A DNA stretch of 38,159 bases from a virus (taxonomy: Duplodnaviria; Heunggongvirae; Uroviricota; Caudoviricetes): positions 1 through 38,159 of IMG/VR virus record IMGVR_UViG_3300045988_123528; one strand, given 5' to 3'. The notes under the pieces were generated by a model, which saw nothing but the letters and a program-made list of their open reading frames with translations, made no database searches and was not told the DNA's origin. Of the stretch, positions 362 through 38,159 are shown piece by piece. A program made the translations under genes and the position numbers. The number at the start of each line of letters is the position of its first letter. Position 1 is the stretch's first letter.

Positions 362-484
362 ATGCACGGTAATTCTGAAATGCAAAAAATCAACCAAACC
401 AGCGCAATGCCTGAAAAAACTGACGTTCACTGGAGTGGTCGGTTTAGCGTTGCACCAATGCTCGATAGGATGTACCGTTTTTGA
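362..484 (+). pseudogene. dusA: Displaced original 5' end of dusA, truncated by prophage insertion
   Basis: Reads MHGNSEMQKINQTSAMPEKTDVHWSGRFSVAPMLD then unrelated residues and a stop; about 80% nt identity to the intact dusA start at 38009. Confidence 0.6.
439..465. repeat. attL core region (segment shared with attR, ends in ATGCTCGA)
   Basis: TCGGTTTAGC and ATGCTCGA are identical in both dusA 5' copies; sequence diverges into phage DNA immediately after. Confidence 0.5.
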
Positions 485-505
485 AAAACAACTAGTTATA
501 CACTT

Positions 506-530
506 TGTGGGAGCCTATTGGGAACCTGTT
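506..530. repeat. Putative integrase arm-type binding sites (GGGA[GA]CC motifs) next to attL
   Basis: TGTGGGAGCC and TGGGAACCTGT; the 11-mer TGGGAACCTGT recurs near attR at about 37956. Confidence 0.35.
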
Positions 531-719
531 ATTCTTAGAAAGCATCATTTGCTCATCACTTCAATTGACCATGGTTAAAGCCAGCTATAAACTTGACAAA
601 CGAGGTAACTGGTTGCTTAGGCCCAAGTGGGCACACCATAAGAAGCTCGTGTTGGTGATGAAGCAACCCATGAAGTATCGAGAATAATTATAAAGTTCAC
701 TATCTTTGAGGTTTCTTAT

Positions 720-1292
720 ATGTTTTGCGAAGAAAAAGTAGCTCAAATGGCTGCATACCTACTTCTTAAGCGAGGTGGGCGCATGGCATATCTGAAATTG
801 ATGAAGTTGCTCTATCTGTCTAACCGCCAGTCGATTTTGAAGCATGGCAGGATGATCGGCGAAGATAGCCTTTACTCTATGAAATTTGGACCAGTCATGT
901 CGAATACGCTGAACTTGATTCGCGGTAAGGCTGAAGGCATTGGTGACTACTGGTACAACTTGATAGAGACGAACGGGCATAATGTATCGTTGCGTTCAGA
1001 TCCGAGGGAAATGGATGCAGACGAGGTCTTTGATGAATTGAGTCGTGCAGATATCCGGATTTTAGATGAAATCTATTCTCGGTATGGGCATATGAACCGA
1101 TTTGATCTCGCAAATATGACGCATTTAGAAAGCGTTTGTCCAGAGTGGCACGATCCTGGCAATTCTCGTAAGCCTATAGACCTGAAAGAAATGCTGATCA
1201 GTGAGGGTAAAAGCGAGGATGAGGCTAATCGCATAATTGGCAAAATGGAAGAATCTCAGAAACTTAAGGAATTTTCTTTGCAATTATCATGA
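720..1292 (+). CDS. Panacea-domain (DUF4065, SocA/PanA-like) protein, putative antitoxin
   Basis: 190 aa; KLMKLLYL and MKFGPV motifs recognised as the Panacea pattern; SD GAGG upstream; stop overlaps next start (ATGA). Confidence 0.55.
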   Translation: MFCEEKVAQMAAYLLLKRGGRMAYLKLMKLLYLSNRQSILKHGRMIGEDSLYSMKFGPVMSNTLNLIRGKAEGIGDYWYNLIETNGHNVSLRSDPREMDADEVFDELSRADIRILDEIYSRYGHMNRFDLANMTHLESVCPEWHDPGNSRKPIDLKEMLISEGKSEDEANRIIGKMEESQKLKEFSLQLS

Positions 1293-1708
1293 CGGATTAT
1301 CAGCCATACAGGAAAGGAACTGTGCTTGCCCCAACTGGGCCATGCAATCATCTTCATGTGATTTGTAATGATCCTGTTTATTACCCCGTTAACGATTGTT
1401 ATTGTGTTTTAGTTGTTAATATTTCTAGTATCAAGGATGGTGTCCCCCACGATCCGTCTTGCGTCTTGAATTCTGGTGATCATCGCTTTATCAAGCATCC
1501 AAGTTATGTTGTTTACGCTGAAGCTATAATTTGGCGAGTGGATAACATGGTTAGAAAGCAGCGATCGGGTGAGATTTCTGTTCATGATGATATGCCAGAA
1601 GCTACATTCAATAGAATTCTGGACGGTTTTGATATCTCTGATGAAGTTACGCCAAAGAACCTTAAATTTAAAAATAAATATTGCGTATCATCTATTGATG
1701 ATGAGTAA
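1289..1708 (+). CDS. Hypothetical protein, candidate toxin partner of the Panacea protein
   Basis: 139 aa, translationally coupled by ATGA overlap; residue pattern loosely reminiscent of a MazF/PemK-type fold (inference only). Confidence 0.4.
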   Translation: MTDYQPYRKGTVLAPTGPCNHLHVICNDPVYYPVNDCYCVLVVNISSIKDGVPHDPSCVLNSGDHRFIKHPSYVVYAEAIIWRVDNMVRKQRSGEISVHDDMPEATFNRILDGFDISDEVTPKNLKFKNKYCVSSIDDE

Positions 1709-1747
1709 ACAACAGGAATTGTTTCGGTATAACTTCAGGAGTTTTCT

Positions 1748-1921
1748 ATGGAAGATCAAAAAGCAACCAAGCCACAGGTTAAGTTCGACACAATGAAAGC
1801 ATTCGCAGGTATGGGTGCTGCTGTTGAAGTTCTGATGAAGGCTGCTCCTAATGCGTTCACTCACGCTACTGTCTCTGGTAAAGAGCAGCAGGGTAAGCTT
1901 CGTCGTCGCAAAGCAGCATGA
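1748..1921 (+). CDS. Small hypothetical protein (57 aa), basic C-terminus
   Basis: Strong SD CAGGAG 7 nt upstream of ATG; followed by a terminator; below the ORF-track size cutoff. Confidence 0.35.
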   Translation: MEDQKATKPQVKFDTMKAFAGMGAAVEVLMKAAPNAFTHATVSGKEQQGKLRRRKAA

Positions 1922-1941
1922 TCATAGCTGGTGCTTTTTGA

Positions 1942-1967
1942 AAACCCGCCTTTAGGCGGGTTTTTTA
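1942..1967. terminator. Bidirectional intrinsic terminator
   Basis: CCCGCC TTTA GGCGGG hairpin flanked by A-run and T-run, between convergent genes. Confidence 0.7.
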
Positions 1968-1968
1968 T

Positions 1969-2250
1969 TTAGTGATGTTCTTTGCCCTTCTGTTTGCTTG
2001 TTCTGACCTGTTCCCACTCGATACGTCCTTCTTCTCGTCTTTTGTCTATGTATTCCGCAAGATCCTGAATATTGATGCAACGTTTTGCTTTTTGTGATGT
2101 GCCGATGCGATATGTTGGAACGGGCAACTTACAAGCGTTTGCTTTTGCTTCTGCCGTGGCTGGACTCATGCCAAAGTACTTTTGGCTAACTGCTGAGAGT
2201 TCAATGTTAGGGGTATTGAATTCAGCCATCAGTAAAAACAAGGTGTTCAT
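1969..2250 (-). CDS. PrtN/excisionase-like small DNA-binding protein
   Basis: MNTLFLLMAEF...YFGMSPATA...LPVP start typical of the PrtN-like family; SD GGAG before this ATG; track ORF extends to a GTG at 2277. Confidence 0.5.
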   Translation of the reverse strand: MNTLFLLMAEFNTPNIELSAVSQKYFGMSPATAEAKANACKLPVPTYRIGTSQKAKRCINIQDLAEYIDKRREEGRIEWEQVRTSKQKGKEHH

Positions 2251-3668: not shown

Positions 3669-4030
3669 TATGCTCCAGCCTCCGGTGCTTTTGGCATTAC
3701 TGCCCAGTGAGTGATGTTGACGTTTTCAAGGTCCCCGACCTGAAATGTCCACTGCCATTCTCCGGTTTCTTTTTGCCCCCATGTATACCAGAGAGAACGC
3801 CAGCCAATCAGCCAGCCTTCTCCATTAGCATCAAATAACAGAACACTTTCATTCGCTGGCGGCAGTTCAGCTGACACTGGTATTACTTTGTTTTCCAGTG
3901 CTGCACATTTAGCTTCAAGCGCATCAAATTTACGCACCAGGTATTCAGCATCCGTTTCATTCACTTTCAGATCTCGCGGTACACATTTCCCGCGAAGAAA
4001 TCCTTCCATTTCGAAAACATTCATGCGCAT
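3668..4030 (-). CDS. Hypothetical phage protein, YfdS-like by size and position
   Basis: 120 aa, start/stop overlaps with neighbours in the leftward operon. Confidence 0.45.
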   Translation of the reverse strand: MRMNVFEMEGFLRGKCVPRDLKVNETDAEYLVRKFDALEAKCAALENKVIPVSAELPPANESVLLFDANGEGWLIGWRSLWYTWGQKETGEWQWTFQVGDLENVNITHWAVMPKAPEAGA

Positions 4031-7046: not shown

Positions 7047-7700
7047 TCAAAAATCCATTATTACTTGTTTGACAAGACCAACTATTCTGCAGTTCTCACC
7101 GCATTCAATAGTTTTATAGTTAGGATTTAGTGGGACGAGATACCTGTTCGGCCAGTCCTCAACAAATTTTTTGAGTGTCGCTTCTTGCCCACCATTGATA
7201 TGGGCAACAACGATTTTTCCGTTAATACACTCTGTATCAATAATATCTGGCTCTACGATAACGATAGAACCTTCTGGTATCGATGGTGAGCCGAGGGGAT
7301 TGGTCATTGAATCACCACGGACCCGTAGTGCAAATGCCATTTCTGATACAAGGGCGGTAGTATAAACCCACTCTTCAGCATCTTCTTTCCTGACACCAGG
7401 CTCCGTCATTGTCCATGAACCCGCCTGAACCCACGAGATGAGGGGGACTTTTTTAACTGCGAATATTTCAGGTTTTAGATTTATCTTTGGTTCAGGCGAG
7501 CCTTTTCCGCTAACAAGCCACAGAGGATCGCATTTAAGTGCGTTGGCTAGGGCTTGAAGGTTGGCTCCATTTGGTTGGTAGTCGTCCTTTTCCCATCCAG
7601 TAACCGTGACACGGTTCACACCAGTCAAATCAGCCAGTGCTTGTTGTGTCAGGTTCAGTTCTTTTCGCCTTTGGCGAATACGATCACTCATGTTCATCAT
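7047..7700 (-). CDS. cI: CI-type prophage repressor (N-terminal HTH, C-terminal S24 LexA-like peptidase)
   Basis: HTH LTQQALADLTGVNRVTV; Ala-Gly site (VQAGSW); GDSM Ser and LKKF Lys of the S24 dyad. Confidence 0.85.
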   Translation of the reverse strand: MMNMSDRIRQRRKELNLTQQALADLTGVNRVTVTGWEKDDYQPNGANLQALANALKCDPLWLVSGKGSPEPKINLKPEIFAVKKVPLISWVQAGSWTMTEPGVRKEDAEEWVYTTALVSEMAFALRVRGDSMTNPLGSPSIPEGSIVIVEPDIIDTECINGKIVVAHINGGQEATLKKFVEDWPNRYLVPLNPNYKTIECGENCRIVGLVKQVIMDF

Positions 7701-7795: not shown

Positions 7796-7993
7796 ATGCG
7801 GAAATCCGACGTGATTAATTATTTCGGCGGAGTTTGTAAAACCGCCGAAGCCCTAGGTATTAAGCATCCGTCTGTTTCAGAGTGGCCTGAGATTATTCCT
7901 GAAGGCCGAGCGTACCAGTTAGAAAAAATTACTAACGGGAAACTGAAAGTTGACGTGTCTTTATATCAAAAGACTAACAGTGCTGCGGCATAA
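7796..7993 (+). CDS. cro: Cro-like transcriptional regulator
   Basis: 65 aa, divergent from cI, SD GGGAGA; Cro/YdaS-like sequence. Confidence 0.65.
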   Translation: MRKSDVINYFGGVCKTAEALGIKHPSVSEWPEIIPEGRAYQLEKITNGKLKVDVSLYQKTNSAAA

Positions 7994-10433: not shown

Positions 10434-11086
10434 TGAGTAATAAATATTGCCAGGAGTTGGTGGAACTGCGGAACAAACCAGCCCATGAACTGAAGGAAGT
10501 GGGTGATCAGTGGCGCACGCCGGACAACATTTTCTGGGGAATTAACACCCTGTTTGGCCCGTTTGTTCTGGATCTGTTCACTGACGGTGATAACGCCAAA
10601 TGTGCTGCGTATTACACGGCGGAAGACAACGCGCTGGCGCATGACTGGTCAGAACGTCTTGCGGAGCTTAAAGGGGCTGCCTTTGGTAATCCCCCATACA
10701 GCCGCGCCAGTCAGCATGAGGGGCAATACATCACCGGCATGCGTTACATCATGAAACATGCCAGTGCCATGCGTGATAAGGGTGGGCGCTATGTTTTCCT
10801 GATCAAAGCTGCCACCAGCGAAGTGTGGTGGCCGGAAGATGCGGACCATATTGCTTTTATTCGCGGGCGTATTGGTTTTGAACTGCCTGCCTGGTTTATC
10901 CCGAAGGATGAGAAGCAGGTGCCGACAGGCGCTTTCTTCGCTGGTGCTATTGCTGTTTTCGACAAGACCTGGAAGGGACCGGCAATTAGCTACATCGGGC
11001 GCGATGAACTTGAGGCATGTGGTGAGGCGTTTCTGGCGCAGGTTCGCCAGCAGGCGGAAAAACTGGTCAGGGAGATGGCGGCATGA
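10433..11086 (+). CDS. Phage DNA N6-adenine methyltransferase (orphan, Dam-like)
   Basis: WRTPDNIF...DLFTDGDN...AFGNPPYS motifs; start ATG overlaps upstream stop. Confidence 0.75.
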   Translation: MSNKYCQELVELRNKPAHELKEVGDQWRTPDNIFWGINTLFGPFVLDLFTDGDNAKCAAYYTAEDNALAHDWSERLAELKGAAFGNPPYSRASQHEGQYITGMRYIMKHASAMRDKGGRYVFLIKAATSEVWWPEDADHIAFIRGRIGFELPAWFIPKDEKQVPTGAFFAGAIAVFDKTWKGPAISYIGRDELEACGEAFLAQVRQQAEKLVREMAA

Positions 11087-11409
11087 CGACGTTAACTCAA
11101 TGCCAGCAGCAGGTGCTGGATATGCTGATTTCTTACCAGCAAGAACGTGGCTTCCCGCCAACTAATCAGGAGGTGGCAACCATGCTGGGATACCGTTCAG
11201 TGAATGCAGCGGTGGAGCATCTTCGCGCACTGGAGAAAAAAGGCGTCATCACGATAAAGCGTGGCGTGGCCCGGGGGATAACGCTTCATACCGCGGTGAA
11301 GGACGACGACAGCGAGGCGGTCGGGATTATCCGCGCACTGCTTGCCGGTGAGGAAAACGCAAGGCTGCGTGCAACCCACTGGTTACATGAGAGGGACCTG
11401 AAAGTATGA
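11083..11409 (+). CDS. LexA N-terminal DNA-binding-domain-like protein lacking the S24 peptidase domain
   Basis: 108 aa; QQVLDMLISYQQERGFPPTNQEVATMLGYRSVNAAVEHLRALEKKGVI closely parallels the LexA DNA-binding domain; no Ala-Gly/Ser-Lys module. Confidence 0.6.
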   Translation: MTTLTQCQQQVLDMLISYQQERGFPPTNQEVATMLGYRSVNAAVEHLRALEKKGVITIKRGVARGITLHTAVKDDDSEAVGIIRALLAGEENARLRATHWLHERDLKV

Positions 11410-22616: not shown

Positions 22617-22641
22617 TTAGTCTTTTTACGTAATACAGCAC

Positions 22642-22684: not shown

Positions 22685-22694
22685 AGGAGGTTTT

Positions 22695-23906: not shown

Positions 23907-24463
23907 AACTGACGCCCGTTATTGCTGCACTGCGTGCCCGCTGTCCGTATTTTGAAAACCGGGTGGCAGGCGCGGCACAGTTCAAAAATCTGCCGGAGGT
24001 CGGAAAGCTGAGACTCCCGGCGGCGTATGTGGTACCGGGTGATGACTCTCCGGGAGAAAACAAAAGCCAGACCGACTACTGGCAGGAGCTGAAAGAGGGC
24101 TTCTCCGTGGTTGTCATACTGAGTAACGGGCGTGATGAGCGCGGTCAGTTTGCCTCGTATGATGTGGTGGACGATGTCCGGCAGATGCTCTTTAAGGCTC
24201 TGCTGGGCTGGAACCCGGAAGCGTGTGGTAACCCGATTACCTATGACGGCGGCACGCTGCTGGATCTGAATCGTCATGAGCTGATTTATCAGTTCGATTT
24301 TTCGGTCATCAGCGAGCTGACTGAAGACGATACCCGCCAGCAGGATGATCTGAACAGTCTGGATGAACTGCAAACGCTGGCGATTGATGTTGATTATCTC
24401 GAGCCCGGTAACGGGCCTGACGGCGATATCGAACATCACACCGAAATAACCCTTCCTTCCTGA
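23903..24463 (+). CDS. Tail completion/terminator-like protein (Mu-type tail module)
   Basis: 186 aa upstream of sheath; family call tentative. Confidence 0.45.
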   Translation: MKLTPVIAALRARCPYFENRVAGAAQFKNLPEVGKLRLPAAYVVPGDDSPGENKSQTDYWQELKEGFSVVVILSNGRDERGQFASYDVVDDVRQMLFKALLGWNPEACGNPITYDGGTLLDLNRHELIYQFDFSVISELTEDDTRQQDDLNSLDELQTLAIDVDYLEPGNGPDGDIEHHTEITLPS

Positions 24464-24471
24464 GGATCCTC

Positions 24472-24642
24472 ATGTTTGTCAAACCTGTTAAAGGGCGGTC
24501 AGTGCCTGACCCTGCCCGCGGCGACCTTTTGCCCGCCGAAGGGCGAAATGTTGACGAGAACAACTACTGGCTGCGCCGTGAAGCAGCGGGTGATATCCGG
24601 CGCGTGAATAAAAAGGTGAATACCGATGACGATAAGCTTTAA
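24472..24642 (+). CDS. Small hypothetical protein (56 aa) preceding the sheath gene
   Basis: SD GAGGA; overlaps the sheath start; below the track cutoff. Confidence 0.4.
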   Translation: MFVKPVKGRSVPDPARGDLLPAEGRNVDENNYWLRREAAGDIRRVNKKVNTDDDKL

Positions 24643-26122: not shown

Positions 26123-26478
26123 TGGCCCGTATCGGGGGAACCTGTTATTTCAAAATTGACGGTCAGCAGCTATCGCTGACCGGCGGCATTGAGGTGCCCA
26201 TGAACAGGACGGTCAATGATGACATCATCGGCCTGGACGGTTCAGTGGACCGCAAGGAAACTCACCGTGCGCCTTATGTCAAAGGGACCTTCAAGGTGCC
26301 GAAGAATTTTCCGGTGAACAAAATCACCTCGTCTGATGAGATGACAATCACTGCCGAGCTGGCGAACGGTCAGGTCTATGTACTGTCGTCTGCCTGGCTG
26401 CACGGCGAAGCGAACCATAATGCCGAAGAAGGCACGGTTGATCTTGAGTTCCACGGTGAAGAAGGGGATTACCAGTAA
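26122..26478 (+). CDS. Tail tube protein (Mu M-like)
   Basis: 118 aa immediately after sheath. Confidence 0.8.
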   Translation: MARIGGTCYFKIDGQQLSLTGGIEVPMNRTVNDDIIGLDGSVDRKETHRAPYVKGTFKVPKNFPVNKITSSDEMTITAELANGQVYVLSSAWLHGEANHNAEEGTVDLEFHGEEGDYQ

Positions 26479-26747
26479 TGAAAGAGCTTGAGTTAAAGAA
26501 ACCGATTACCGCTCATGGCGAGACACTCTCCGTACTGGAGTTTGATGAGCCCACCGGGAAAGATGTCCGCGAGCTGGGATATCCCTACCAGATGAATCAG
26601 GATGAGTCCGTCAGACTTCTGGCGCATGTGGTATCGAAATACATCGTGCGGCTGGCGAAAGTGCCGCAAAGCTCTGTCGACCAGATGTCTCCGGCAGACC
26701 TGAATGCAGCGGCGTGGCTTGTGGCCGGTTTTTTCCTCCAGGCCTGA
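26478..26747 (+). CDS. Tail assembly chaperone (short form)
   Basis: 89 aa upstream of tape measure; contains slippery TTTTTTC near its 3' end. Confidence 0.7.
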   Translation: MKELELKKPITAHGETLSVLEFDEPTGKDVRELGYPYQMNQDESVRLLAHVVSKYIVRLAKVPQSSVDQMSPADLNAAAWLVAGFFLQA

Positions 26748-26896
26748 CGGCTGAATACCTCACTGATCGCTTCTTTGACTGCGCCAGTTACTGGCGCATT
26801 AATCCTTTCGAATTGCTGAATATGCCGATCAGTGAAATTCCCTTACTGGTCAGTCAGGCAAACAGGATAGAGCAGGAGAAACGCACACATGGCTGA
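26478..26896 (+). CDS. Tail assembly chaperone, -1 frameshift-extended form
   Basis: Slippery heptamer T TTT TTC at about 26729-26735; the -1 frame stays open to 26896 and overlaps the tape measure start. Confidence 0.55.
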
Positions 26897-28724
26897 ATTT
26901 GAGCTTAAGGCGTTGATCACCGGTGTCGACAGGCTTTCTCCGGCGCTGTCGAAAATGCAAAAGAAAATCCGGGGATTTAAACGCCAGGCGGAAGAAGCGT
27001 CACAGGGTGGGCTGGCGCTTGGTGGCGGACTGGCAGCGGGTCTGACGCTTTCCCTGAAATCTTATGCCGATCAGGAAAACGCCGCCACCGGGCTGAAAGT
27101 CGCCATGATGGATGCGAACGGCGAGGTTGGAAAAAGCTTTCAGGACATCAATAAATTGGCTATTGGCCTGGGTAACCAGCTACCCGGTACAACGGCTGAT
27201 TTCCAGAACATGATGCAGATGCTGGTGCGTCAGGGGATCCCAGCAGAAAACATTCTGGGTGGTGTGGGTAAAGCGACAGCTTATCTTGCGGTACAACTGA
27301 AAAAAACACCGGAATCGGCAGCCGAGTTTGCTGCAAAGATGCAGGATGCTACCGGAACGGCGTCAGAAGACATGATGGGGCTGTTCGACACTATCCAGAA
27401 AGCGTTTTATCTGGGCGTTGACGATACCAACATGTTGTCCTTCTTCACTAAAACCAGTTCTGTTCTGAAGATGGTGAATAAGGACGGTCTTCAGGCTGCA
27501 CAGAGCCTTGCCCCTATCAGCGTCATGATGGATCAGATGGGGATGAACGGGGAGTCGGCAGGTAATGCCCTGCGAAAAGTTATTCAGTCCGGATTAAGCG
27601 TTAAGAAAATCAGGGACGTCAATAAAGTCATGGCCCGCCAGAAACTCGGAGTGCAGCTCGATTTTACTGACGGCAAAGGGAGTTTTGGCGGTCTTGATAA
27701 CATGTTCAGGCAACTGGCAAAGCTGCGAAAACTGACCGACGTTAAGCGAACAGGTGTACTTAAGGCAATATTTGGTGATGATGCCGAAACCCTTCAGGTG
27801 GTCAATGCACTAATCGATAAAGGAAAGGATGGCTACGATCAGATCCAGCAGAAGATGAATAAACAGGCCAGCCTGAATAAACGTGTTCAGGCCCAGCTTG
27901 GTACGCTGTCCAACCTGTGGGAGGCAATGACGGGGACCGCAACTAACGGCCTTGCGGCTATTGGCGGCGCATTTTCTGGTGACGCCAAAAATATCACGCA
28001 ATGGCTGGGGGAGTTGGGGGAGAAATTCACGAAGTTTGCGGATGAAAATCCCCGGGTTATTCGCGGCGTCGTCGGGCTTGCTGCCGGTCTTGCGATTCTG
28101 AAACTGGGATTGATGGGCGTTGGCGGTGCCATCAGTATTGTCAGCAGGATCATGTCGATGACGCCGATTGGCATGATTGCGACGGCGATAGCCCTGGCTG
28201 CGGGATTAATTATCACTAACTGGGATGTTGTCGGACCTTATTTTAAGAAACTCTGGGAAACCATTAGTCCTTATTTTGAGGCTGGCTGGGAACTTCTGAA
28301 GAAGGTTTTTGCCTGGTCGCCGCTGGGGATGGTGATCAATAACTGGGGACCGGTTGTTAAGTGGTTTCAGGATATGTGGGATAAGCTGAAGCCGATTATT
28401 GAATGGTTTACCGACAGTTCCGGTGACACGGTCGATGCCATTAACTCTGCGCAGTGGGGCGCGGGTGCTTATGATGCTTATGGGACGGGAATACCGGCGC
28501 GGGGATACAAACCTTATCCGGCGGTAGATCTGGCTCAGTCAAACAACGCCTCCGGTGCCACAGGCCCAAATCCCTTCATGATTAACAAAGCTTCTGCGCC
28601 AAAAGTTGATGGTGAGATCAAGGTCTCTTTTGTGAATTCGCCTCCGGGTATGCGGGTTATGGAAACGCGATCCAGCGGTTTTGATGTCAGCCATGATGTT
28701 GGCTATACGCGCTTTGGCAGGTAA
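26889..28724 (+). CDS. Tail tape measure protein
   Basis: 611 aa, Gly/Ala-rich hydrophobic stretches, position after chaperones. Confidence 0.85.
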   Translation: MAEFELKALITGVDRLSPALSKMQKKIRGFKRQAEEASQGGLALGGGLAAGLTLSLKSYADQENAATGLKVAMMDANGEVGKSFQDINKLAIGLGNQLPGTTADFQNMMQMLVRQGIPAENILGGVGKATAYLAVQLKKTPESAAEFAAKMQDATGTASEDMMGLFDTIQKAFYLGVDDTNMLSFFTKTSSVLKMVNKDGLQAAQSLAPISVMMDQMGMNGESAGNALRKVIQSGLSVKKIRDVNKVMARQKLGVQLDFTDGKGSFGGLDNMFRQLAKLRKLTDVKRTGVLKAIFGDDAETLQVVNALIDKGKDGYDQIQQKMNKQASLNKRVQAQLGTLSNLWEAMTGTATNGLAAIGGAFSGDAKNITQWLGELGEKFTKFADENPRVIRGVVGLAAGLAILKLGLMGVGGAISIVSRIMSMTPIGMIATAIALAAGLIITNWDVVGPYFKKLWETISPYFEAGWELLKKVFAWSPLGMVINNWGPVVKWFQDMWDKLKPIIEWFTDSSGDTVDAINSAQWGAGAYDAYGTGIPARGYKPYPAVDLAQSNNASGATGPNPFMINKASAPKVDGEIKVSFVNSPPGMRVMETRSSGFDVSHDVGYTRFGR

Positions 28725-28784
28725 TGAAAAATTAATCTGTTAATGAGTCCCACTCCGGTGGGATTTTTTATGTACGGAGTTTAT

Positions 28785-30113
28785 ATGACGTGGAAAGACA
28801 GACTTCAGGACGCGTCATTTCGAGGTGTGCCGTTTAAGGTTGAAGAAGAAAGTGCGGGAACCGGCCGTCGTGTGGAAACACACGAATATCCGAACCGCGA
28901 CAAACCCTATACCGAAGATCTGGGAAAAGTCACTTTCCGCCCGTCCATCACAGCTTATGTGGTGGGAGATGACTGCTTTGACCAGCGCGATCGCCTGATT
29001 GAAGCGCTGAATAAACCCGGTCCCGGCACGCTTGTCCATCCGACTTACGGTGAGCTGAAAGTCTGTGTTGACGGGGAAGTTCGGGTCAGCACATCGAAAA
29101 GTGAAGGACGTATTGTCCGCTTTGACCTGAAGTTTGTCGAAGCGGGAGAACTCTCTTACCCCACATCAGGTGCGGCGACGGCGCAGACGCTGATGTCATC
29201 CTGTTCTGCACTGGATGACTGCATCAGTGACAGTTTCAGTGGTTTCAGTATCGATGGCGTGGCAGATTTTGTGCAGAACGACGTCGTCGGTAATGCCGGC
29301 ACAATGCTTGGGTATATTTCTGATGCGATGAAAGTGGTGGATTCTGCCGTATCGGATGCCGCCAGGCTGTTGCAGGGGGATATCTCGGTACTTCTGCCGC
29401 CGCCATCGTCAGGCAAAAATTTCGTTGAGCTGGTGCAGAAAATGTGGCGTACCGGGAAACGCCTTTATGGTAACGCCAGCGACCTGGTCACCATGATCAA
29501 AACGCTTTCCGGTGTCAGCCTCGGCAGCGATCTGCAACCGCGCGGCGTCTGGAAAACGGACAGTAAAACCACCGCCACGGCGACGCAGCAGCGTAACGTG
29601 GTTGCCAGCACCCTTCGTACGACCGCAATCAGCGAAGCGGCGTATGCCGTCACCCGATTGCCTGCGCCAACAACTTCCGCGGTGATGCAGAATGCCGCAG
29701 TGGGGCAGGCAACAACACCCGCGCAGAGCACTGGCTGGCCTTCCGTCACGCATCCGGCACTGAACAATGCACCGGCGGTGAAAAACACGGTTGACCTGCC
29801 GACGTGGGAAGAACTGACTGACATTCGCGACACACTGAATACGGCAATTGATAAGGAGTTGTCCCGTACAACCAGCGATGCGCTGTTTCTGGCGCTGCGC
29901 CGGGTGAAAGCAGATCTGAATGCGGATATCAACACGCGCCTTGAACAGTCTGCACGGATCATTCAGCGCACACCGGATGAAGTTTTACCCGCGCTGGTGC
30001 TGGCGGCGACCTGGTTTGATAACGCGGCGCGTGACGCGGACATTATCCGGCGTAATGCCATTACGCATCCCGGCTTTGTGCCGGTGATCCCTCTGAAGGT
30101 GCCAGTGCAATGA
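28785..30113 (+). CDS. Mu N-like DNA circularisation protein
   Basis: WKDRLQDASFRGVPF...GRRVETHEYPNRDKPYTEDLG N-terminal signature; start at ATG with SD GGAG. Confidence 0.7.
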   Translation: MTWKDRLQDASFRGVPFKVEEESAGTGRRVETHEYPNRDKPYTEDLGKVTFRPSITAYVVGDDCFDQRDRLIEALNKPGPGTLVHPTYGELKVCVDGEVRVSTSKSEGRIVRFDLKFVEAGELSYPTSGAATAQTLMSSCSALDDCISDSFSGFSIDGVADFVQNDVVGNAGTMLGYISDAMKVVDSAVSDAARLLQGDISVLLPPPSSGKNFVELVQKMWRTGKRLYGNASDLVTMIKTLSGVSLGSDLQPRGVWKTDSKTTATATQQRNVVASTLRTTAISEAAYAVTRLPAPTTSAVMQNAAVGQATTPAQSTGWPSVTHPALNNAPAVKNTVDLPTWEELTDIRDTLNTAIDKELSRTTSDALFLALRRVKADLNADINTRLEQSARIIQRTPDEVLPALVLAATWFDNAARDADIIRRNAITHPGFVPVIPLKVPVQ

Positions 30114-31189
30114 ACGACAATGTCACGCTACGGGTAAATGGCCGGGAGTGGAATGGCTGGACATCGGTGCGCATCGGTGCCGGTATTGAACGGCTGGCGC
30201 GGGATTTCAGTGTGGAGATCACCCGCCAGTGGCCGGGAGATGAGGGTATCACCACGCTTCAGCCGCGCATTAAAAACGGTTCAAAAGTGGAAGTGCTGAT
30301 TGGTGATGAGCTGGTGATCACCGGCTGGGTGGAGGCGACGCCCGTTCGTTACGATTCCCGTTCGGTCAGCACCGGTATTGCCGGACGTAGTCTGACGGCT
30401 GACCTGATTGACTGTGCAGCCGAACCGACACAGTTTAACGGACGCTCGCTGGTGCAGATTGCGCAGGCGCTTGCTGCGCCTTTCGGCATTGAGGTGGTGA
30501 ACAGCGGTGCGCCGTCGGGTGTTATTCCTGATGTTCAGCCTGATCACGGTGAAACGGTGATTGAGGTAATCAACAAAATACTCGGTCAGCAGCAGGCACT
30601 GGCTTACGACGACCCGCACGGCAGGCTGGTGATTGGCGGTATTGGCTCAACGCGGGCACATACTGCGCTGGTACTCGGGGAAAACATCCTTTCCTGCGAT
30701 ACGGAGAAGAGTATCCGGGAGCGGTTTTCTGTTTACCAGGTGGCGGGGCAGCGTGCCGGAAACGACGATGATTTCGGTGAGGCCACCACCACCGCGCTGC
30801 GGGCCCGCACAGAGGACGCATTTATTGCCCGTTACCGTCCGATGTATATCAGGCAGACAGGGCAGGCTACGGGGGCAGGCTGTATTGCGCGTGCTGACTT
30901 TGAAGCCCGGCAACGGGCGGCGCGGACGGATGAAACCACCTATGTGGTGCAGGGCTGGCGACAGGGTAACGGTACGCTGTGGCAGCCCAACCAGCGGGTG
31001 ATTGTCTTTGATCCGGTCTGTGGTTTCGACAATACCGAACTGCTTGTTTCGGAAGTCACGTTTACTCAGGACCAGAACGGCACCCTGACGGAAATCCGTG
31101 TCGGCCCACCTGATGCTTATCTGCCTGAACCCGAAGCCCCCGGCGCGCGGAAAAAGAAAAAAGCCAGAGTACAGGAGGACCCGTTCTGA
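30110..31189 (+). CDS. Baseplate hub protein (Mu P-like)
   Basis: 359 aa in conserved Mu-type baseplate order. Confidence 0.65.
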   Translation: MNDNVTLRVNGREWNGWTSVRIGAGIERLARDFSVEITRQWPGDEGITTLQPRIKNGSKVEVLIGDELVITGWVEATPVRYDSRSVSTGIAGRSLTADLIDCAAEPTQFNGRSLVQIAQALAAPFGIEVVNSGAPSGVIPDVQPDHGETVIEVINKILGQQQALAYDDPHGRLVIGGIGSTRAHTALVLGENILSCDTEKSIRERFSVYQVAGQRAGNDDDFGEATTTALRARTEDAFIARYRPMYIRQTGQATGAGCIARADFEARQRAARTDETTYVVQGWRQGNGTLWQPNQRVIVFDPVCGFDNTELLVSEVTFTQDQNGTLTEIRVGPPDAYLPEPEAPGARKKKKARVQEDPF

Positions 31190-31737
31190 TGAGGACGATT
31201 GAAGCCATGCAGCGACAACTCCTCGGCCTGATTGGGCGGGCAGTGGTGAAAAGCATCAGTGCCGCCACGAAATGTCAGACCGTGGATGTGTCCCTGATTG
31301 CCGGTGAACCCAAAGCCGGGGTTGAACATCTTGAACCCTACGGTTTTACCGCAAGGGCAAACAGCGGTGCGGAAGCGGTGGTGTTGTTTCCGGATGGCGA
31401 CCGTTCTCATGCGGTGGTTGTTACGGTGTCGGACCGGCGCTACCGCCTGAAAGGGCTGCAGACGGGTGAGGTGGCTGTCTATGACGATCAGGGGCAGTCT
31501 GTGACGCTGACCCGGGAGGGGATCGTGGTGGACGGTGCAGGTAAAACGATCACGTTTCGCAATGCGCCCAGAGCACGTTTTGAAATGGACCTGGAAGTGA
31601 CCGGACAGGTGAAAGACCTGTGCGACTCCGGCGGTACCACCATGTCAGCGATGCGGCTTGCCTATAACGGGCATCGTCACAGAGAGAACGGTCAGGGCAG
31701 TAACACCGACAAACCTGATAAAGCGATGGAGGCATGA
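31189..31737 (+). CDS. Baseplate assembly protein V-like
   Basis: 182 aa, position and size. Confidence 0.6.
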   Translation: MRTIEAMQRQLLGLIGRAVVKSISAATKCQTVDVSLIAGEPKAGVEHLEPYGFTARANSGAEAVVLFPDGDRSHAVVVTVSDRRYRLKGLQTGEVAVYDDQGQSVTLTREGIVVDGAGKTITFRNAPRARFEMDLEVTGQVKDLCDSGGTTMSAMRLAYNGHRHRENGQGSNTDKPDKAMEA

Positions 31738-32162
31738 TGGAACTGTGGCTGACGGTGAACGGTAAACGCACCTGCGCCAGCGCACAGCTGGATCCGCTGA
31801 CCCGCGCCGTGGTGATTTCCCTGTTTACCTGGCGGCGGGCGGAGCCTGATGACAACGCCGATGTCCCGATGGGATGGTGGGGGGATACCTGGCCTGCGGT
31901 ACAGAATGACCGTTACGGCTCCCGACTGTGGCTGCTTCAGCGCAGCAAACTGACCAATCAGCTGGTGCAGACGGTAAGGGGGTATATCCGCGAATGCCTG
32001 CAATGGATGATTGATGACGGCGTGGTGTCCCGTATTGATCTGGATATCCGCCGCACCGGGATTAATGAACTGGGTAACAGTATCACTCTCTGGCGTCGTG
32101 ACGGACCGGTAATGATTTCTTTTGATGATCTGTGGAGTGCGATAACGCATGGCGGACAGTGA
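31734..32162 (+). CDS. Baseplate protein (Mu gp46-like)
   Basis: 142 aa, conserved order. Confidence 0.6.
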   Translation: MMELWLTVNGKRTCASAQLDPLTRAVVISLFTWRRAEPDDNADVPMGWWGDTWPAVQNDRYGSRLWLLQRSKLTNQLVQTVRGYIRECLQWMIDDGVVSRIDLDIRRTGINELGNSITLWRRDGPVMISFDDLWSAITHGGQ

Positions 32163-33207
32163 ATTTCAGCGCCCGACGCTGGCAGAAAATATCAGTATGC
32201 TCCGTAACGATTTATTCGCCAGGCTGGACGTCAGCGACACGCTCCGGCGCATGGATGAAGACGTGCGGGCAAAGGTGTATGCGGCGGCGCTGCATACGGT
32301 TTACGGTTACATCGATTATCTGGCAATGAACATGCTGCCTGACCTGTGCGATGAGTCCTGGCTGGCGCGACATGCTGCGATGAAACGGTGTCCGCGCAAG
32401 GGGGCCACGGCTGCCAGCGGGTATATGCGCTGGGAAGGTGTCAGCGATGGCCTGAAGGTGACCGCCGGGAGTGTTATTCAGCGCGATGACCTGGTGCAGT
32501 ACACGACAACTGACGATGCAACCAGCTCCGGTGGTGTCCTGCGCGTGCCGATCACTTGCTCAACTACAGGCGCGGTCGGTAACGCTGACGACGGTACGGC
32601 ATTAATCCTGGTCACGCCGGTGAATGGTCTGCCGTCTTCCGGTGTTGCAGATACCCTGACTGGCGGATTTGATACTGAAGAGCTGGAAACGTGGCGCGCC
32701 CGCGTCATTGAGCGGTATTACTGGACGCCTCAGGGCGGGGCTGACGGGGACTATGTCGTCTGGGCTAAAGAAGTGTCAGGCATTACCCGTGCATGGACAT
32801 ACCGCCACTGGATGGGAACGGGGACTGTCGGTGTGATGATTGCCAGCAGTGACCTGATTAATCCCATTCCGGAAGAATCAACGGAAACGGCGGCAAGACA
32901 ACACATTGAGCCACTGGCCCCGGTGGCAGGCTCTGATTTGTATGTATTCAGGCCGGTGGCGCATAAAGTGGATTTTCATATCCGCGTGACGCCGGACACA
33001 CCGGAAATACGGGCTGCCATCACCGCGGAGTTGCGTTCGTTCCTGCTGCGTGATGGTTATCCGCAGGGAGAACTGAAGGTATCGCGTATCAGTGAGGCGA
33101 TTTCCGGTGCGAACGGGGAATACAGCCATCAGTTGCTTGCACCGGCAGACAATATCTCCATTGCAAAAAATGAACTGGCGGTTCTGGGGACGATTTCATG
33201 GACGTGA
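32149..33207 (+). CDS. Baseplate J-like protein (Mu gp47-like)
   Basis: 352 aa, conserved order. Confidence 0.7.
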
Positions 33208-33782
33208 CAAACGATGATTACATCCGCCTGTTATCGGCACTGTTGCCGCCCGGTCCTGCATGGTCAGCCAGCGATCCGGCGATTGCCGGTGCGGCACCTT
33301 CATTAACCCGCGTTCATCAGCGTGCGGATGCCCTGATGCGGGAGCTGGATCCGCGCACCACCACTGAACTGATAAACCGCTGGGAGCGTCTGTGCGGTCT
33401 GCCGGATGAATGTATTCCCGCAGGGACACAGACCCTTCGCCAGCGTCAGCAACGGCTGGATGCGAAGGTTAATCTGGCGGGCGGCATCAATGAGGATTTT
33501 TACCTTGCACAGCTTGCTGCCCTGGGCAGACCAGACGCCACTATCACGCGATACGATAAAAGCACGTTCACCTGCTCATCGGCCTGTACTGACGCAGTGA
33601 ATGCGCCGGAATGGCGGTATTACTGGCAGGTCAACATGCCAGCCGCCACCAACACCACCTGGATGACATGTGGCGATCCCTGTGATTCCGCACTGCGTAT
33701 CTGGGGCGACACCGTTGTCGAGTGCGTGCTTAACAAACTCTGCCCTTCGCATACCTACGTAATTTTTAAATATCCGGAGTAA
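33198..33782 (+). CDS. DUF2313 / YmfQ-like tail protein (Mu gp48-like)
   Basis: 194 aa, the size of e14 YmfQ; precedes the tail fibre. Confidence 0.6.
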
Positions 33783-33785
33783 TCC

Positions 33786-34490
33786 ATGCATCGTATAGAC
33801 ACGAAAACCGCGCAGAAGGATAAGTTCGGCGCGGGTAAGAACGGTTTTACCCGTGGTAACCCCCAGACCGGCACACCTGCCACCGATCTGGATGATGACT
33901 ACTTTGACATGTTGCAGGAAGAACTTTGTAGCGTGGTGGAGGCCTCCGGTGCCAGCCTGGAGAAAGGGCGGCATGACCAGATGCTTACCGCACTTCGTGC
34001 GCTGCTGTTAAGCCGCAAGAATCCGTTTGGCGATATCAAATCGGATGGCACTGTGCAAACGGCTCTCGAAAACCTTAGTTTAGGAGAAGGCTCAGCATTG
34101 CCTGTTGGCGTACCTGTTCCGTGGCCTTCAGTCACACCGCCAACAGGCTGGCTGAAATGCAACGGTGCAGCTTTTTCTGCCGAAGAGTATCCGGAACTGG
34201 CAAAAGTTTATCCGACAAATAAATTGCCAGATTTACGCGGCGAATTCATTCGTGGGTGGGATGATGGAAGAGGAATTGATTCAGGACGGACTCTCCTGTC
34301 TGCTCAGGACGGGAGCATTGAGGCACACGGCCATGATTACAATGGGGCCATCTATACTTCTAGCGGTCCTTCCTGGGCTAATACGACGGATGCGGGACAC
34401 CGGGCATATTCGGGATTTACATCATCATATGGCGGGAGCGAAACCCGTCCACGAAATATTGCATTTAACTATATCGTGAGGGCTGCATAA
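33786..34490 (+). CDS. Tail fibre protein
   Basis: 234 aa; Gly-rich C-terminal region; followed by a tail fibre assembly gene. Confidence 0.7.
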
Positions 34491-35089
34491 TGGATAACGC
34501 CGTATTAAATAGCGAGCTTATTGCCACGAAGGCGGGGAATATTACTGTTTATAACTATGATGGTGAGACGCGGGAATATATTTCTGCATCAACTGAATAT
34601 CTTGCAGTGGGTGTCGGTATTCCAGCATATTCCTGTTTAGACGCTCCTGGTACATCTAAGGCTGGTTATACAATTTGCCGTTCTGTGGATTTAAAATCAT
34701 GGGAATATGTGTCAGACCATCGCGGTGAAATCGTCTATAACACCGAAACGGGAGAATCGAAAGAAATCACAGCTCCGGGTGATTATCCTGAAAATACAAC
34801 CACTATCGCCCCGTTAACGCCATACGATAAATGGGATGGTGAAAAATGGGTGACGGATATCAATGCTCAGCACGTAGCGGAAGTGGAAGCGGCAGAGCAA
34901 CAGAAATCTGTGCAGCTTCTGTTCGCAAAGGAAAAGATCATTCTTTGGCAGACTGAATTACAGCTGGGAATTATCAGCGACGAAGATAAAGAAAAACTAA
35001 TATCTTGGGTGAACTATATCAAAGCTGTTCAGGCAGTAGATACCCAGAAAGCTCACAATATCATCTGGCCTAAAAAACCATTCATATAA
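34490..35089 (+). CDS. Tail fibre assembly protein (Tfa)
   Basis: 199 aa, coupled to the fibre gene. Confidence 0.75.
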   Translation: MDNAVLNSELIATKAGNITVYNYDGETREYISASTEYLAVGVGIPAYSCLDAPGTSKAGYTICRSVDLKSWEYVSDHRGEIVYNTETGESKEITAPGDYPENTTTIAPLTPYDKWDGEKWVTDINAQHVAEVEAAEQQKSVQLLFAKEKIILWQTELQLGIISDEDKEKLISWVNYIKAVQAVDTQKAHNIIWPKKPFI

Positions 35090-35091: not shown

Positions 35092-35118
35092 AAACGCCCC
35101 TTATGGGGCGTATTTTGC
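35092..35118. terminator. Bidirectional terminator between tail genes and the acyltransferase
   Basis: ACGCCCC TTAT GGGGCGT hairpin plus T-run; overlaps the acyltransferase stop. Confidence 0.7.
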
Positions 35119-36270
35119 TGCTTGCACGTTATTCTTTGGAAGAATTTTATTTGATAAATAATTGGAAAATTTTATCGCGTTATCATCAATTAGCAATTTA
35201 AAAATTAAAGCTGCAAGTATTGAAGATAATAAAGTGATTGGGAAAGTAATAAGTAAAGACTTTCCGTATGAAACTCCTGCATCACCAAGCTTAATTACGA
35301 TCAAAGAAGATATTGAAGCTATTAATGGAAAATGCACCAGATAAAGAGAGTATGATACATCTCCAAGAAATTTACAGGTTTTTGTTTTGAATAAATTTGA
35401 GATAACTATTGATTTATCAATTGCTATAATAAGAAACATTGAACCAAAGGCTTGAGAAACAATTCTCAAATCAAAGTAAGTTATGTCACTGTTATTTATC
35501 CAGATACTATGTTCAGTTATAAAATATGGGTATGAACCTAGGTAACATCCTAGTAAAATAAACATAAAGATAATTGTGGTATTAATTTTCTTTATATTAA
35601 CTGAAACATCTGCACAAATCACCCCTAATATAAATCCTATTAGATGACTTGAGCTAAATACCACAATACCTAAAGTATAAAAAGCAAACCTAATTCTGGT
35701 AGTGCAAACTAGTGGGACCAGAACGAGTACAAGAATTGAGCCAACCAATTCGGTGTGAATGGTCCATAATACTGGGTTTAATGTTTGAACTCCGTAAAAA
35801 TATGTACCAATACCCCCTTCCCATACCGCATTCAGTAATGTCATTGTAGTTGGCATCGCTGGGATTACTTGTGATAAAGAGTACACTGCAGTTTCTGATG
35901 AATGAAATCCAATCGTTGTCATCAGAATAAAGGAAAATATAGTAGATGCAATGGTAGGTATTGCAAGACGTGGGTATCTCTTGATAATGGATTTAGAGTA
36001 CCATTCTAGCCCCTTCCCTTTGAAAAAGGGAATCGATAGAACCATTCCACTCAAAACGAAGAAAAGCATTACGGCAAAGTGACCATTATATAATATATTA
36101 AATGGAGTTTCACTTATGTATTTCTCTCCATAATGATCTATCTGATTTTGAACAAAAACAGATGGTAGAAAGAATTGCATGAAATGGCTTATTAAAACTA
36201 TCAAGCAAGCTATACCACGAATACCATCCAGTGCGTGATCTCGGGAAGGCGTCGTTAATTGTTGAACCAT
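35101..36270 (-). CDS. Acyltransferase family 3 integral membrane protein (OafA/Oac-like)
   Basis: LDGIRGIACLIVLISHF N-terminal motif and many TM segments; AT-rich relative to the rest of the prophage; SD GAGGA before this ATG. Confidence 0.8.
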   Translation of the reverse strand: MVQQLTTPSRDHALDGIRGIACLIVLISHFMQFFLPSVFVQNQIDHYGEKYISETPFNILYNGHFAVMLFFVLSGMVLSIPFFKGKGLEWYSKSIIKRYPRLAIPTIASTIFSFILMTTIGFHSSETAVYSLSQVIPAMPTTMTLLNAVWEGGIGTYFYGVQTLNPVLWTIHTELVGSILVLVLVPLVCTTRIRFAFYTLGIVVFSSSHLIGFILGVICADVSVNIKKINTTIIFMFILLGCYLGSYPYFITEHSIWINNSDITYFDLRIVSQAFGSMFLIIAIDKSIVISNLFKTKTCKFLGDVSYSLYLVHFPLIASISSLIVIKLGDAGVSYGKSLLITFPITLLSSILAALIFKLLIDDNAIKFSNYLSNKILPKNNVQAAKYAP

Positions 36271-36512
36271 CAATTCCTCACACATTGTAATAAAGTATTA
36301 AAATAAAATAGTAAAAGCAGAATATACAAATACGAAAAGCGGAATTATACTTTACAAGAGTGCTTGATGCTATTGTTTTGTCGAGATTTATAATCTGATC
36401 TTCTGTAGATGTTGTCCTGGCATTGTCCAATCATGATCTATGGGCTGGCTGGCGAACTTTCGATAGTGCGAGTATTGAATGATTTCCAGCCGTTACCGAT
36501 TTTACGTGTTAA

Positions 36513-36761
36513 TTAGTGAACAAACCACTCGTCAGCAGATTCCCAGGTATCTTTCAGAGTCTCCTGAACAAAAGTTTTTGCAGAATCCTTATCTGCGGTG
36601 CGTGTAACAGAAAGGCCATCGTTGCTGGTGGCTTTTACGATCACCTCTACATCGTCATAACGTTTACTGATGCGTCGGGTTAATTCTTCCTTTAACGCAT
36701 CCACAGCACCGGTTGGCATTTTAGTCATTTTTTCTTTGGCTATGCAGATTTCAATACGCAT
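36513..36761 (-). CDS. DinI-like protein
   Basis: 82 aa; MRIEICIAK...[11 protein letters not shown] closely matches DinI; SOS boxes in promoter. Confidence 0.85.
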
Positions 36762-36773
36762 AAAAGTCCCTCT

Positions 36774-36825
36774 ATACTGTGTTTGTATACAGTATTATTT
36801 TTAACTGTATGGATAAACAGTGTCA
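36774..36825 (-). promoter_or_regulatory. SOS-regulated promoter with two LexA boxes
   Basis: TACTGTGTTTGTATACAGTA and AACTGTATGGATAAACAGTG (CTGT-N8-ACAG); minus-strand TTGACA-17-TAAAAT; coordinates +/-2. Confidence 0.75.
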
Positions 36826-37920
36826 AGAGGTCTTATTTCTGCTCCTTTGGAGCTCTTCAAAACGATTATGTAAAGATTTCGGATACAGTTCGGTATATAC
36901 CTGCCATAGCACGTTTAATGAACGATGCCCTGTAACCTGGGCGACTTCCTCAATACTAAAACCAGCCTCAAATAAGCGACTTGCCCCTTCTCTACGCAAA
37001 TCATGGTATCGCAGATCTTTAATACCTAATTTGCTTCTTACCCTCTGGAATCCCGCAGTAACAGAAGTGCTGTTATATGGAAAAATGAATTCTGATTTTT
37101 TGGGTTGTCGTTGGACGATATCCCAGGCTTCCCCAAGCAAGGCTACTTTCATATGGTTGCCTTCCTTTTTACGTGGATCTTTCCTGTCTCTTACGAGTAT
37201 GGATTTTTGTTCCTGATCGAGATCCTCCCATCGTAATCGGCATACTTCACCGATTCGCATACATGACCACACAGAAAATTTGAGGATATCAACGAACGGA
37301 ATTTTTGAGCATTTATGTGTAGATCGTTGTTGAAGACCTTCAATGAGCATGTCCAGTTCATCAGATGCCGGTCTACGATTACGACGATTTGATTTACCAA
37401 TTAAACCAAGTTTAAGTAGATATGGACGAGCGGCTTTTGCTGGGTTTGATGTGTAATTAATTCCATATACAGGTTTGGCAGCATCCAGAACACTACCAAG
37501 ATAACTAACATCGTGGCTAACTGTAGCTGGACCTGCACCAGCGTTGTTTCTTAGCCTGCAATGTTCAATTACGTCATTTTCTGTCAGTTCAGATAGTTTG
37601 ATCGCGGAGATGTCACTATCCATAAGCAGTTCCAGCACATATCTTTTAGTACGGCCTGCTTTACCTCCGGCATTTGGGTCATTTAAATATTTGTGTAGTA
37701 AGTCACGGACTGTAAGTCCGTCAACTGCATTTGATGATGGAATGCCATATAGATCTAATTCCATCACTTTCTGTGTGCCCCATGTTTTGGCATGAGCATG
37801 TTTAGGGAATGTTTTGCTTTCCCTGTAAGTGATAACACCTTTTTCTTTGATAATCACATTACAGCGATAGCGTGGTGTGCCATCGGATTTTAGTCGTTTC
37901 TCTATGTTATAGTACGCCAT
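36823..37920 (-). CDS. int: Tyrosine integrase (dusA-associated integrase type)
   Basis: 365 aa; catalytic R..HDLRR..H...Y motifs; adjacent to the dusA junction. Confidence 0.9.
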   Translation of the reverse strand: MAYYNIEKRLKSDGTPRYRCNVIIKEKGVITYRESKTFPKHAHAKTWGTQKVMELDLYGIPSSNAVDGLTVRDLLHKYLNDPNAGGKAGRTKRYVLELLMDSDISAIKLSELTENDVIEHCRLRNNAGAGPATVSHDVSYLGSVLDAAKPVYGINYTSNPAKAARPYLLKLGLIGKSNRRNRRPASDELDMLIEGLQQRSTHKCSKIPFVDILKFSVWSCMRIGEVCRLRWEDLDQEQKSILVRDRKDPRKKEGNHMKVALLGEAWDIVQRQPKKSEFIFPYNSTSVTAGFQRVRSKLGIKDLRYHDLRREGASRLFEAGFSIEEVAQVTGHRSLNVLWQVYTELYPKSLHNRFEELQRSRNKTS

Positions 37921-37939
37921 TACACGACCTCGTTATTTC

Positions 37940-37976
37940 GGGTTCCCATAAAACGTGGGAACCTGTGCGGGAACCT
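37940..37976. repeat. Putative integrase arm-type sites next to attR
   Basis: GGGTTCCC, GTGGGAACCTGT and CGGGAACC clustered; the 11-mer is shared with the attL side. Confidence 0.4.
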
Positions 37977-38008
37977 AACGCGAGAAAAATAGCCTGAAAT
38001 GTTCAAAA

Positions 38009-38159
38009 ATGCACGATAATCATGAAACACAAAAAATTAATCAAACCAGCGTGATGCCTGAAAAAACTGGTGTTTACTGGAATTCTCGGTTTAGCATTGC
38101 TCCTATGCTCGACTGGACGGACAGACATTGCCGCTATTTCTTGCGTCTGCTTTCCCGCA
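38009..38159 (+). CDS. dusA: dusA 5' end (partial; continues beyond the window), phage-supplied replacement
   Basis: [50 protein letters not shown] is the conserved DusA N-terminus. Confidence 0.8.
38086..38112. repeat. attR core region
   Basis: Same TCGGTTTAGC...ATGCTCGA segment as attL. Confidence 0.5.

Follow-up and report, generated by a model that had tools for sequence, protein, structure and literature searches.

How can a phage lodge within the first codons of a chromosomal gene and leave that gene with an open reading frame? This question is raised by the 38,159 nucleotides of viral DNA analyzed here (IMG/VR record IMGVR_UViG_3300045988_123528, positions 1 to 38,159; hereafter the window), which carry near each end a start of dusA, a tRNA-dihydrouridine synthase gene. 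Almost certainly, a temperate contractile-tailed phage has integrated site-specifically into the 5' end of Escherichia coli dusA and supplied this gene with a replacement start. Such an integration had been proposed in an original prediction made from the letters of the DNA; it is real, was correctly interpreted and is already known, down to the same module of integrase gene (int) and phage attachment site (attP).

A Duplicated dusA Start at the Prophage Ends

Two diverged copies of the dusA start had been predicted at 362–465 and 38009–38112. They were recovered at these very positions, with their ATG codons at 362–364 and 38009–38011, 86 of the 104 nucleotides identical (83%), no gap and the reading frame kept. 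In a repeat search of the whole window, the dusA pair ranks first (117 nt, 81% identity, spacing of 37,647), the runner-up two-copy family reaching 34 nt at 74%; the dusA repeat is far beyond chance. Both window ends are 100% identical to the E. coli chromosome NZ_AP022098.1 and to several further complete genomes. In NZ_AP022098.1, about 60 phage genes separate a DUF2713 (yjbM-like) gene from dusA-pspG-qorA-dnaB. The prophage as a whole and the features of its left junction, the attachment site attL, are as follows.

466–38104, no strand: complete prophage of about 37.6 kb, 37,647 bp core to core (Prokaryotic Genome Annotation Pipeline, PGAP, on the identical region of NZ_AP022098.1)
1–361, plus strand: intergenic host DNA preceding dusA (252–361 aligned with K-12, a single mismatch)
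362–484, plus strand: orphaned native dusA 5' end at attL, with 35 native codons, 5 phage codons and TGA (K-12 alignment, open reading frame and PGAP)
458–465, plus strand: crossover (overlap) region ATGCTCGA, attL copy, inside the published C. rodentium attB string (PMC6328086)

The left copy was expected to keep host DNA upstream, to run into phage sequence and to stop there, as it does. Indeed, window positions 252–465 differ from the K-12 yjbM–dusA intergenic region and dusA start by a single mismatch, located upstream of dusA, and the open reading frame (ORF) reads MHGNSEMQKINQTSAMPEKTDVHWSGRFSVAPMLD, then RMYRF, before a TGA stop at 482–484, for a total of 40 aa. In NZ_AP022098.1, positions 362–466 are labeled by PGAP as a partial tRNA-dihydrouridine synthase pseudogene. 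It is hardly conceivable that this copy starts a different intact gene, or that the repeat reflects chance or a duplication made in assembly. These possibilities were rejected on the stop after 40 codons and on the upstream DNA and first 104 nt, which are those of the K-12 dusA locus; many complete genomes also show the same arrangement, 167 with the attL end and 742 with the right-hand junction, attR.

Empty Site and Crossover Region

At the right end, the copy was predicted to lie beside a divergent integrase gene and to continue as intact DusA. Only its first 151 nt fall within the window, reading onward as WTDRHCRYF, and the full gene is found in NZ_AP022098.1, where it encodes 345 aa. The features of this end are the following.

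38009–38104, plus strand: phage-supplied dusA 5' end, codons 1–32, followed by the core (located beside int in mEp460, SKA5, Lys8385Vzw and 1720a-02)
38105–38112, plus strand: crossover region ATGCTCGA, attR copy (alignment with K-12 and phage attP)
38113–38159, plus strand: host dusA, identical to K-12 and continuing beyond the window

A comparison with an uninterrupted dusA locus had been suggested as a check, and K-12 MG1655 provides such a locus. Its empty site (attB) equals the left junction through 465, bar one upstream single-nucleotide polymorphism (SNP), and the right junction from 38105 onward, the exchange being confined to 8 bp. The last position at which attR differs from attB and attL is 457/38104, and the first at which attL differs from attB and attR is 466/38113. 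Strand exchange is thus placed inside the 8-bp ATGCTCGA (458–465 and 38105–38112), because it is the only stretch between these two differences. Eight base pairs is a typical overlap size for tyrosine recombinases. The insertion point lies 97–104 nt into the dusA ORF, and the core region GC[AT]CC[AT]ATGCTCGA[CT][TA]GGA agrees with the attB string of C. rodentium (PMC6328086).

All 18 mismatches between the two copies segregate, the host variants being all in attL and the phage variants all in attR. This clean segregation therefore favors site-specific over homologous recombination. An insertion by RecA-dependent homologous recombination over the 104 nt of dusA homology, instead of by the integrase (Int) at the core, could draw on partners that are 83% identical over this length. 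However, identity of 83% with short identical runs makes a poor RecA substrate, and the exchange is confined to 8 bp at the far 3' limit of the homology. In addition, C. rodentium uses the same junction though its native 5' end resembles the phage copy far less (Balasubramanian et al., 2019; PMC6328086), and we consider the RecA route very improbable.

The Phage Attachment Site

If the right-hand dusA start came with the phage, attP should combine the phage sides of attL and attR. The DNA from int to the core matches 12 phage records and, in those of mEp460, SKA5 and Lys8385Vzw, the module lies mid-genome in the order int, 88-nt spacer, dusA-like 5' end, ATGCTCGA and then the sequence of window positions 466–527. 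Such a layout is exactly what attL and attR together predict for attP; the dusA start on the right is therefore phage-borne. In the SKA5 record, the resulting 123-nt ORF is even annotated as "tRNA-dihydrouridine". As for the junctions whose absence would have counted against the original prediction, they exist in deposited sequences, the empty attB in K-12 and attP in the phage records. The two arms of attP are distributed over the window ends.

466–527, plus strand: phage DNA forming the P' arm of attP; TGGGARCC is repeated here in direct orientation, at 508–515 and 519–526 (same or almost the same sequence in attP of mEp460, SKA5 and Lys8385Vzw, and where the 1720a-02 record ends)
37921–38008, plus strand: int–dusA spacer (P arm), phage-derived (matches phage attP records, with 1 SNP in SKA5)
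37941–37948, minus strand; 37956–37963, plus strand; 37967–37974, plus strand, first base C: GGGAACC repeats of the spacer

The 38-kb window contains 6 TGGGARCC matches where 2.1 would be expected, and 4 of the 6 lie no more than 170 nt from a core (508, 519, 37941 in inverted orientation and 37956), a fifth, near-copy, CGGGAACC, being located at 37967. These repeats are candidate arm-type binding sites for Int or for the excision factor described below. Along the P' arm, mEp460 and 1720a-02 cease to resemble the prophage just past the last TGGGAACC repeat, at about 527–529. This end point delimits attP to roughly 250 bp. Mosaic breakpoints coincide with this edge of the attP module.

Of note, in Lys8385Vzw (MT225100) the core ATGCTCGA stands twice in tandem at about 3805–3825 of the record, in the attP region that aligns to 458–465. 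The duplication may be real or an artefact of circularizing a sequence taken from a prophage; in both cases its position is exactly that of the inferred crossover region.

Integrase, Excision Factor and Proposed Mechanism

The recombination functions are encoded at opposite ends of the prophage.

36823–37920, minus strand: dusA-associated tyrosine integrase, 365 aa (PF00589 at 1e-20)
1969–2250, minus strand: PrtN/RdfN-type recombination directionality factor, or excisionase (PF11112 at 4e-23; phrog_1300 "excisionase" at 1e-39)

The catalytic set of the integrase (R222, H306, R309, H332 and Y342) is intact in an alignment to XerA. The protein is 98% identical to the integrase of mEp460, which is annotated as INT_Rci (cd00796) in the phage record and is one of the dusA-associated integrases (DAI) of phages named by Farrugia et al. 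(2015) (PMC4482086). Through this identity, the present integrase belongs to the DAI class transitively; the assignment rests on mEp460 Int because NCBIfam was uninformative: the integrase had Xer/integron matches below threshold only, and the PrtN-like, Panacea and neighboring proteins had none. Regarding the PrtN/RdfN-type gene, its homologue in mEp460 is annotated as an excisionase. It lies at the prophage end opposite int, that is, across attP from it, and int and rdfN are likewise found across attP in the dusA-specific element IMEVchUSA3, whose excision requires RdfN (Durand et al., 2021; PMC8409611).

Taken together, these data support the following model. In the phage, attP carries diverged dusA codons 1–35 beside the divergent int, ending in the chromosome-shared overlap ATGCTCGA. 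Tyrosine-recombinase strand exchange within these 8 bp would strand the native promoter and first 35 codons at attL, where the native start is fused to 5 phage codons and a stop. At attR, the phage-borne 5' end is joined in frame to the remainder of dusA, so that the lysogen still encodes a full-length DusA with 9 substitutions in its first 30 residues. Excision would require Int together with the PrtN/RdfN-type factor and would restore native dusA.

The present prophage probably still excises. The alternative is a fixed prophage, one that kept its attachment sites and int and lost excision or virion production. A frameshifted hypothetical gene and a capsid-gene fragment are indeed annotated, and excision was below 1e-7 for the islands tested by Farrugia et al. 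(2015) (PMC4482086). Nevertheless, the annotated modules are all present and intact, as are the catalytic residues of Int, and RdfN is present. Moreover, relatives with the same int/att module were deposited as phage genomes (SKA5, mEp460 and the PhiR series), and 1720a-02, whose int/att module is 99.8% identical, regenerates attP in vivo (PMC6328086). A fixed prophage is thus unlikely.

The Reconstituted dusA and Its Expression

Does the exchange of its first codons leave a plausible DusA? Over the 34 codons before the crossover, the phage and native copies differ by 9 amino-acid changes and 4 silent ones, and 26 of 35 residues (74%) are identical between the replacement and the native N-terminus. 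The hybrid DusA of NZ_AP022098.1 (345 aa) is 97% identical to the K-12 protein, all 9 differences being within residues 1–30. Its Pfam Dus match spans residues 30–340 and scores 350.8 bits, the same as that of the K-12 protein. The phage therefore contributes a poorly conserved N-terminal extension and the opening residues of the Dus domain ([V/I]APMLD), a segment that corresponds to the beta-1 strand discussed by Farrugia et al. (2015) (PMC4482086). The replacement 5' end keeps both the reading frame and the beta-1 strand. That elements of this kind restore the 5' end of the gene, as stated in the original prediction, is a documented rule (PMC4482086; PMC6328086; PMC8409611).

Where dusA is transcribed from is a more delicate matter. 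The start of int is at 37920, 88 nt separate it from the dusA ATG at 38009, and these 88 nt are phage DNA; there is no read-through from int into dusA because int is divergent. On the host side, the native promoter can be bracketed by a hairpin, and a looser motif scan gave one candidate element at each end.

38–67, plus strand: terminator-like hairpin with 13 pairs and a T-run, after the DUF2713/yjbM gene (terminator scan)
270–278, plus strand: candidate native extended -10 element TGGTATAGT (looser motif scan)
37905–37913, plus strand: candidate extended -10 element TGTTATAGT for the reconstituted dusA, within int codons 3–6 (looser motif scan)

The hairpin is probably the terminator of the upstream DUF2713/yjbM gene, and dusA would therefore have its own promoter within 68–361. 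A consensus sigma-70 scan of this native upstream region returned weak sites only, nothing convincing; being weak or empty at both junctions, the scan is therefore unable to locate either promoter. Both candidate elements fit TGnTATAGT and lie at similar distances from their ATG, about 95 nt for TGTTATAGT and the phage-supplied start and about 85 nt for TGGTATAGT and the native one. The shared motif could be a promoter mimic or a coincidence. We infer that dusA is transcribed from phage DNA, with the extended -10 at 37905–37913 as candidate. The original prediction had dusA expressed from the phage-derived 37921–38008. The phage origin of this DNA was confirmed; no sigma-70 consensus was found inside the interval, and the best candidate -10 is located just outside. 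Expression from 37921–38008 is plausible, this DNA being phage-derived and a related element of Vibrio having been shown to bring a new promoter; the promoter of the present phage may lie just beyond the interval.

Nothing contradicts the integration model itself; the account has these weak points. The consensus sigma-70 scan found no site at 37921–38008, nor on the plus strand of 37500–38159 at the scan threshold. The extended -10 candidate was picked after the fact, and the codons that it overlaps may owe their conservation to the protein. All related phages are about 97% identical in the module, too close for conservation to test the proposed arm sites or promoter.

One also has to consider a reconstituted dusA with the architecture described and an open reading frame that is nonetheless silent or strongly under-expressed for want of an adequate promoter or translation start. 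The missing sigma-70 consensus upstream of 38009 would fit such a case, as would the lack of an obvious Shine-Dalgarno sequence before either ATG. However, the native upstream region is equally poor in the same scan, with both regions holding TGnTATAGT at similar distance from the ATG. In addition, frame, length and the beta-1 residues RFS[V/I]APMLD are kept across several phage variants, which argues for selection on the translated product. Experimentally, dusA expression after integration of IMEVchUSA3 was below that of element-free cells, yet a lacZ fusion in E. coli K-12 showed that dusA is expressed, at this lower level, from a promoter borne by the related element (PMC8409611). A silent or strongly under-expressed dusA is hence quite unlikely.

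Comparison With Known Systems

Among phages, the best match is 1720a-02 (KF030445), or PhiStx2dact, for which integration about 100 bp into dusA has been described, with attL and attR junctions sequenced, a phage ORF (PhidusA') in frame with the remaining dusA, and attP-regenerating reads found in mouse stool (Balasubramanian et al., 2019; PMC6328086). The short fully conserved core reported for this phage lies within TCCAGTCGAGCATGGGAGC, the reverse complement of GCTCCCATGCTCGACTGGA (PMC6328086). Its int-spacer-PhidusA' DNA is 99.8% identical to that of the present prophage, the P' arm is equal up to the last TGGGAACC repeat, the crossover region is equal and both ends of the record align with the att arms of the window. 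The cargo and virion genes differ: 1720a-02 is a 47-kb Stx2d-converting lambdoid phage, whereas the present prophage measures 37.6 kb, has no stx annotated, possesses a contractile SfV/Mu-type tail and carries other genes beside the P' arm.

The same attP layout, with a dusA-like 5' end, core and arm repeats, is found in mEp460 (NC_019716), SKA5, Lys8385Vzw and PhiR40/47/55. Phage mEp460 and its relatives also share the PrtN-type excisionase across attP and large parts of the early region at 96–98% identity. In contrast, the dusA copy of mEp460 differs at several positions, a lambda-type tail fibre is annotated in this phage and other genes follow past about 527.

More broadly, DAI elements have been reported from more than 200 genomes, with Escherichia over-represented, and are characterized by an RHRH set with a nucleophilic tyrosine, Rci as closest relative of the integrase and semiconserved 21-bp repeats at attL and attR (Farrugia et al., 2015; PMC4482086). 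The present prophage shares with them the divergent tyrosine recombinase at the dusA 5' end and a 5' replacement that includes beta-1, with direct repeats within dusA at attL and attR that may be of the semiconserved kind, together with a PrtN homologue, present in most islands. There is no difference of kind, the present prophage being an Escherichia member. IMEVchUSA3 and SGI1-like dusA elements have the same target, a 35-residue replacement of the E. coli DusA N-terminus and an RdfN-type factor across attP; the element was shown experimentally to bring a new dusA promoter (Durand et al., 2021; PMC8409611). Unlike the present prophage, they are mobilizable islands under IncC AcaCD, not phages, and identity between their replacement and the native N-terminus is 61%, versus the 74% observed here.

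How frequent is this arrangement? The attR junction is present in 742 of the 5,426 complete E. coli genomes (about 14%), counted at 80% or more coverage of a 300-nt query that runs from int through the phage copy into host dusA. A K-12 attB query for counting empty sites was tried and dropped, the attL remnant alone covering more than 80% of it; the attR junction was counted because the attB query fails to separate lysogens from non-lysogens. In that share of the complete genomes, DusA thus bears a phage-derived N-terminus. Published experimental work already covers the exact int/attP module as well as the mechanism, integrase family and excision factor, so that the locus has little discovery value. 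Its value is in annotation: the prophage boundaries are fixed to an 8-bp crossover, and the "partial tRNA-dihydrouridine synthase" pseudogene is explained as the orphaned native 5' end.

Prophage Architecture and Cargo

The prophage combines an SfV/mEp460/SKA5-like early region with an HK97-type head and a contractile Mu/SfV-type tail. PGAP recognizes modules for CI/Cro, replication, Q antitermination, lysis, HNH-terminase, HK97-type head, contractile tail with baseplate, and tail fibres. Within the prophage it marks as pseudogenes only a hypothetical gene with a frameshift and a small fragment of a capsid protein, and the prophage looks functional on this annotation. Comparison with phage records, which for this purpose covered 466–25000, revealed a mosaic of isolated phages such as vB_EcoM-720R4, SKA5, mEp460 and SfV at 96–98% identity, with matches over 68% of the query at 96.7% identity and over 61% at 98.0%. 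Further annotated genes are:

720–1292, plus strand: Panacea (SocA-like antitoxin) domain gene (PF13274 at 2.2e-19)
7047–7700, minus strand: CI-like repressor of the LexA/S24 family, divergent from cro (PGAP)
7796–7993, plus strand: cro (PGAP)
16699–35089, plus strand: late region, with HNH endonuclease, small and large terminase, portal, protease, major capsid and connectors, continued by sheath, tube, tape measure, baseplate, tail fibre and tail fibre assembly (PGAP and ORF list)
35101–36270, minus strand: acyltransferase-3 family gene (PF01757 at 6e-27)
36513–36761, minus strand: DinI-like gene downstream of int (PF06183 at 1e-19)

At the left end, the Panacea gene overlaps an ORF of 128–139 aa of unknown function (phrog_19071), which is followed by a 57-aa ORF. 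These two ORFs, 1322–1708 and 1748–1921, have only unknown-function PHROG matches. The whole accessory cluster (720–1921, plus strand) is co-oriented with the orphaned dusA start; it may represent toxin-antitoxin or defence cargo within possible reach of the native dusA promoter, and the terminator scan found no terminator-like site at 484–720, between the orphaned start and the Panacea gene. One can thus imagine a reciprocal promoter swap, in which the native dusA promoter would drive the Panacea cluster at attL and dusA would be read from the int-embedded -10, with a leader bound by Int or RdfN coupling DusA to the state of the prophage. We regard this scenario as quite unlikely. If true, the Panacea cargo would be under a host housekeeping promoter only in the lysogen, and the level of DusA, hence D20 modification of tRNA, would follow the state of the prophage recombination machinery through three GGGAACC sites in the 5' untranslated region.

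At the other end, the acyltransferase-3 gene, likely a lysogenic-conversion moron, lies between the tail-fibre assembly gene and dinI/int. The same position is usual for the O-antigen-modifying lysogenic-conversion genes of SfV- and Sf6-type phages.

Two minor features complete this description. A second LexA-family protein, annotated by PGAP as a 108-aa "LexA repressor" (11083–11409, plus strand), is encoded between the genes for a Dam methylase and RusA. Finally, the 72-nt partial capsid-protein pseudogene at 36445–36516 (PGAP) adjoins dinI and is probably the scar of a past mosaic recombination.

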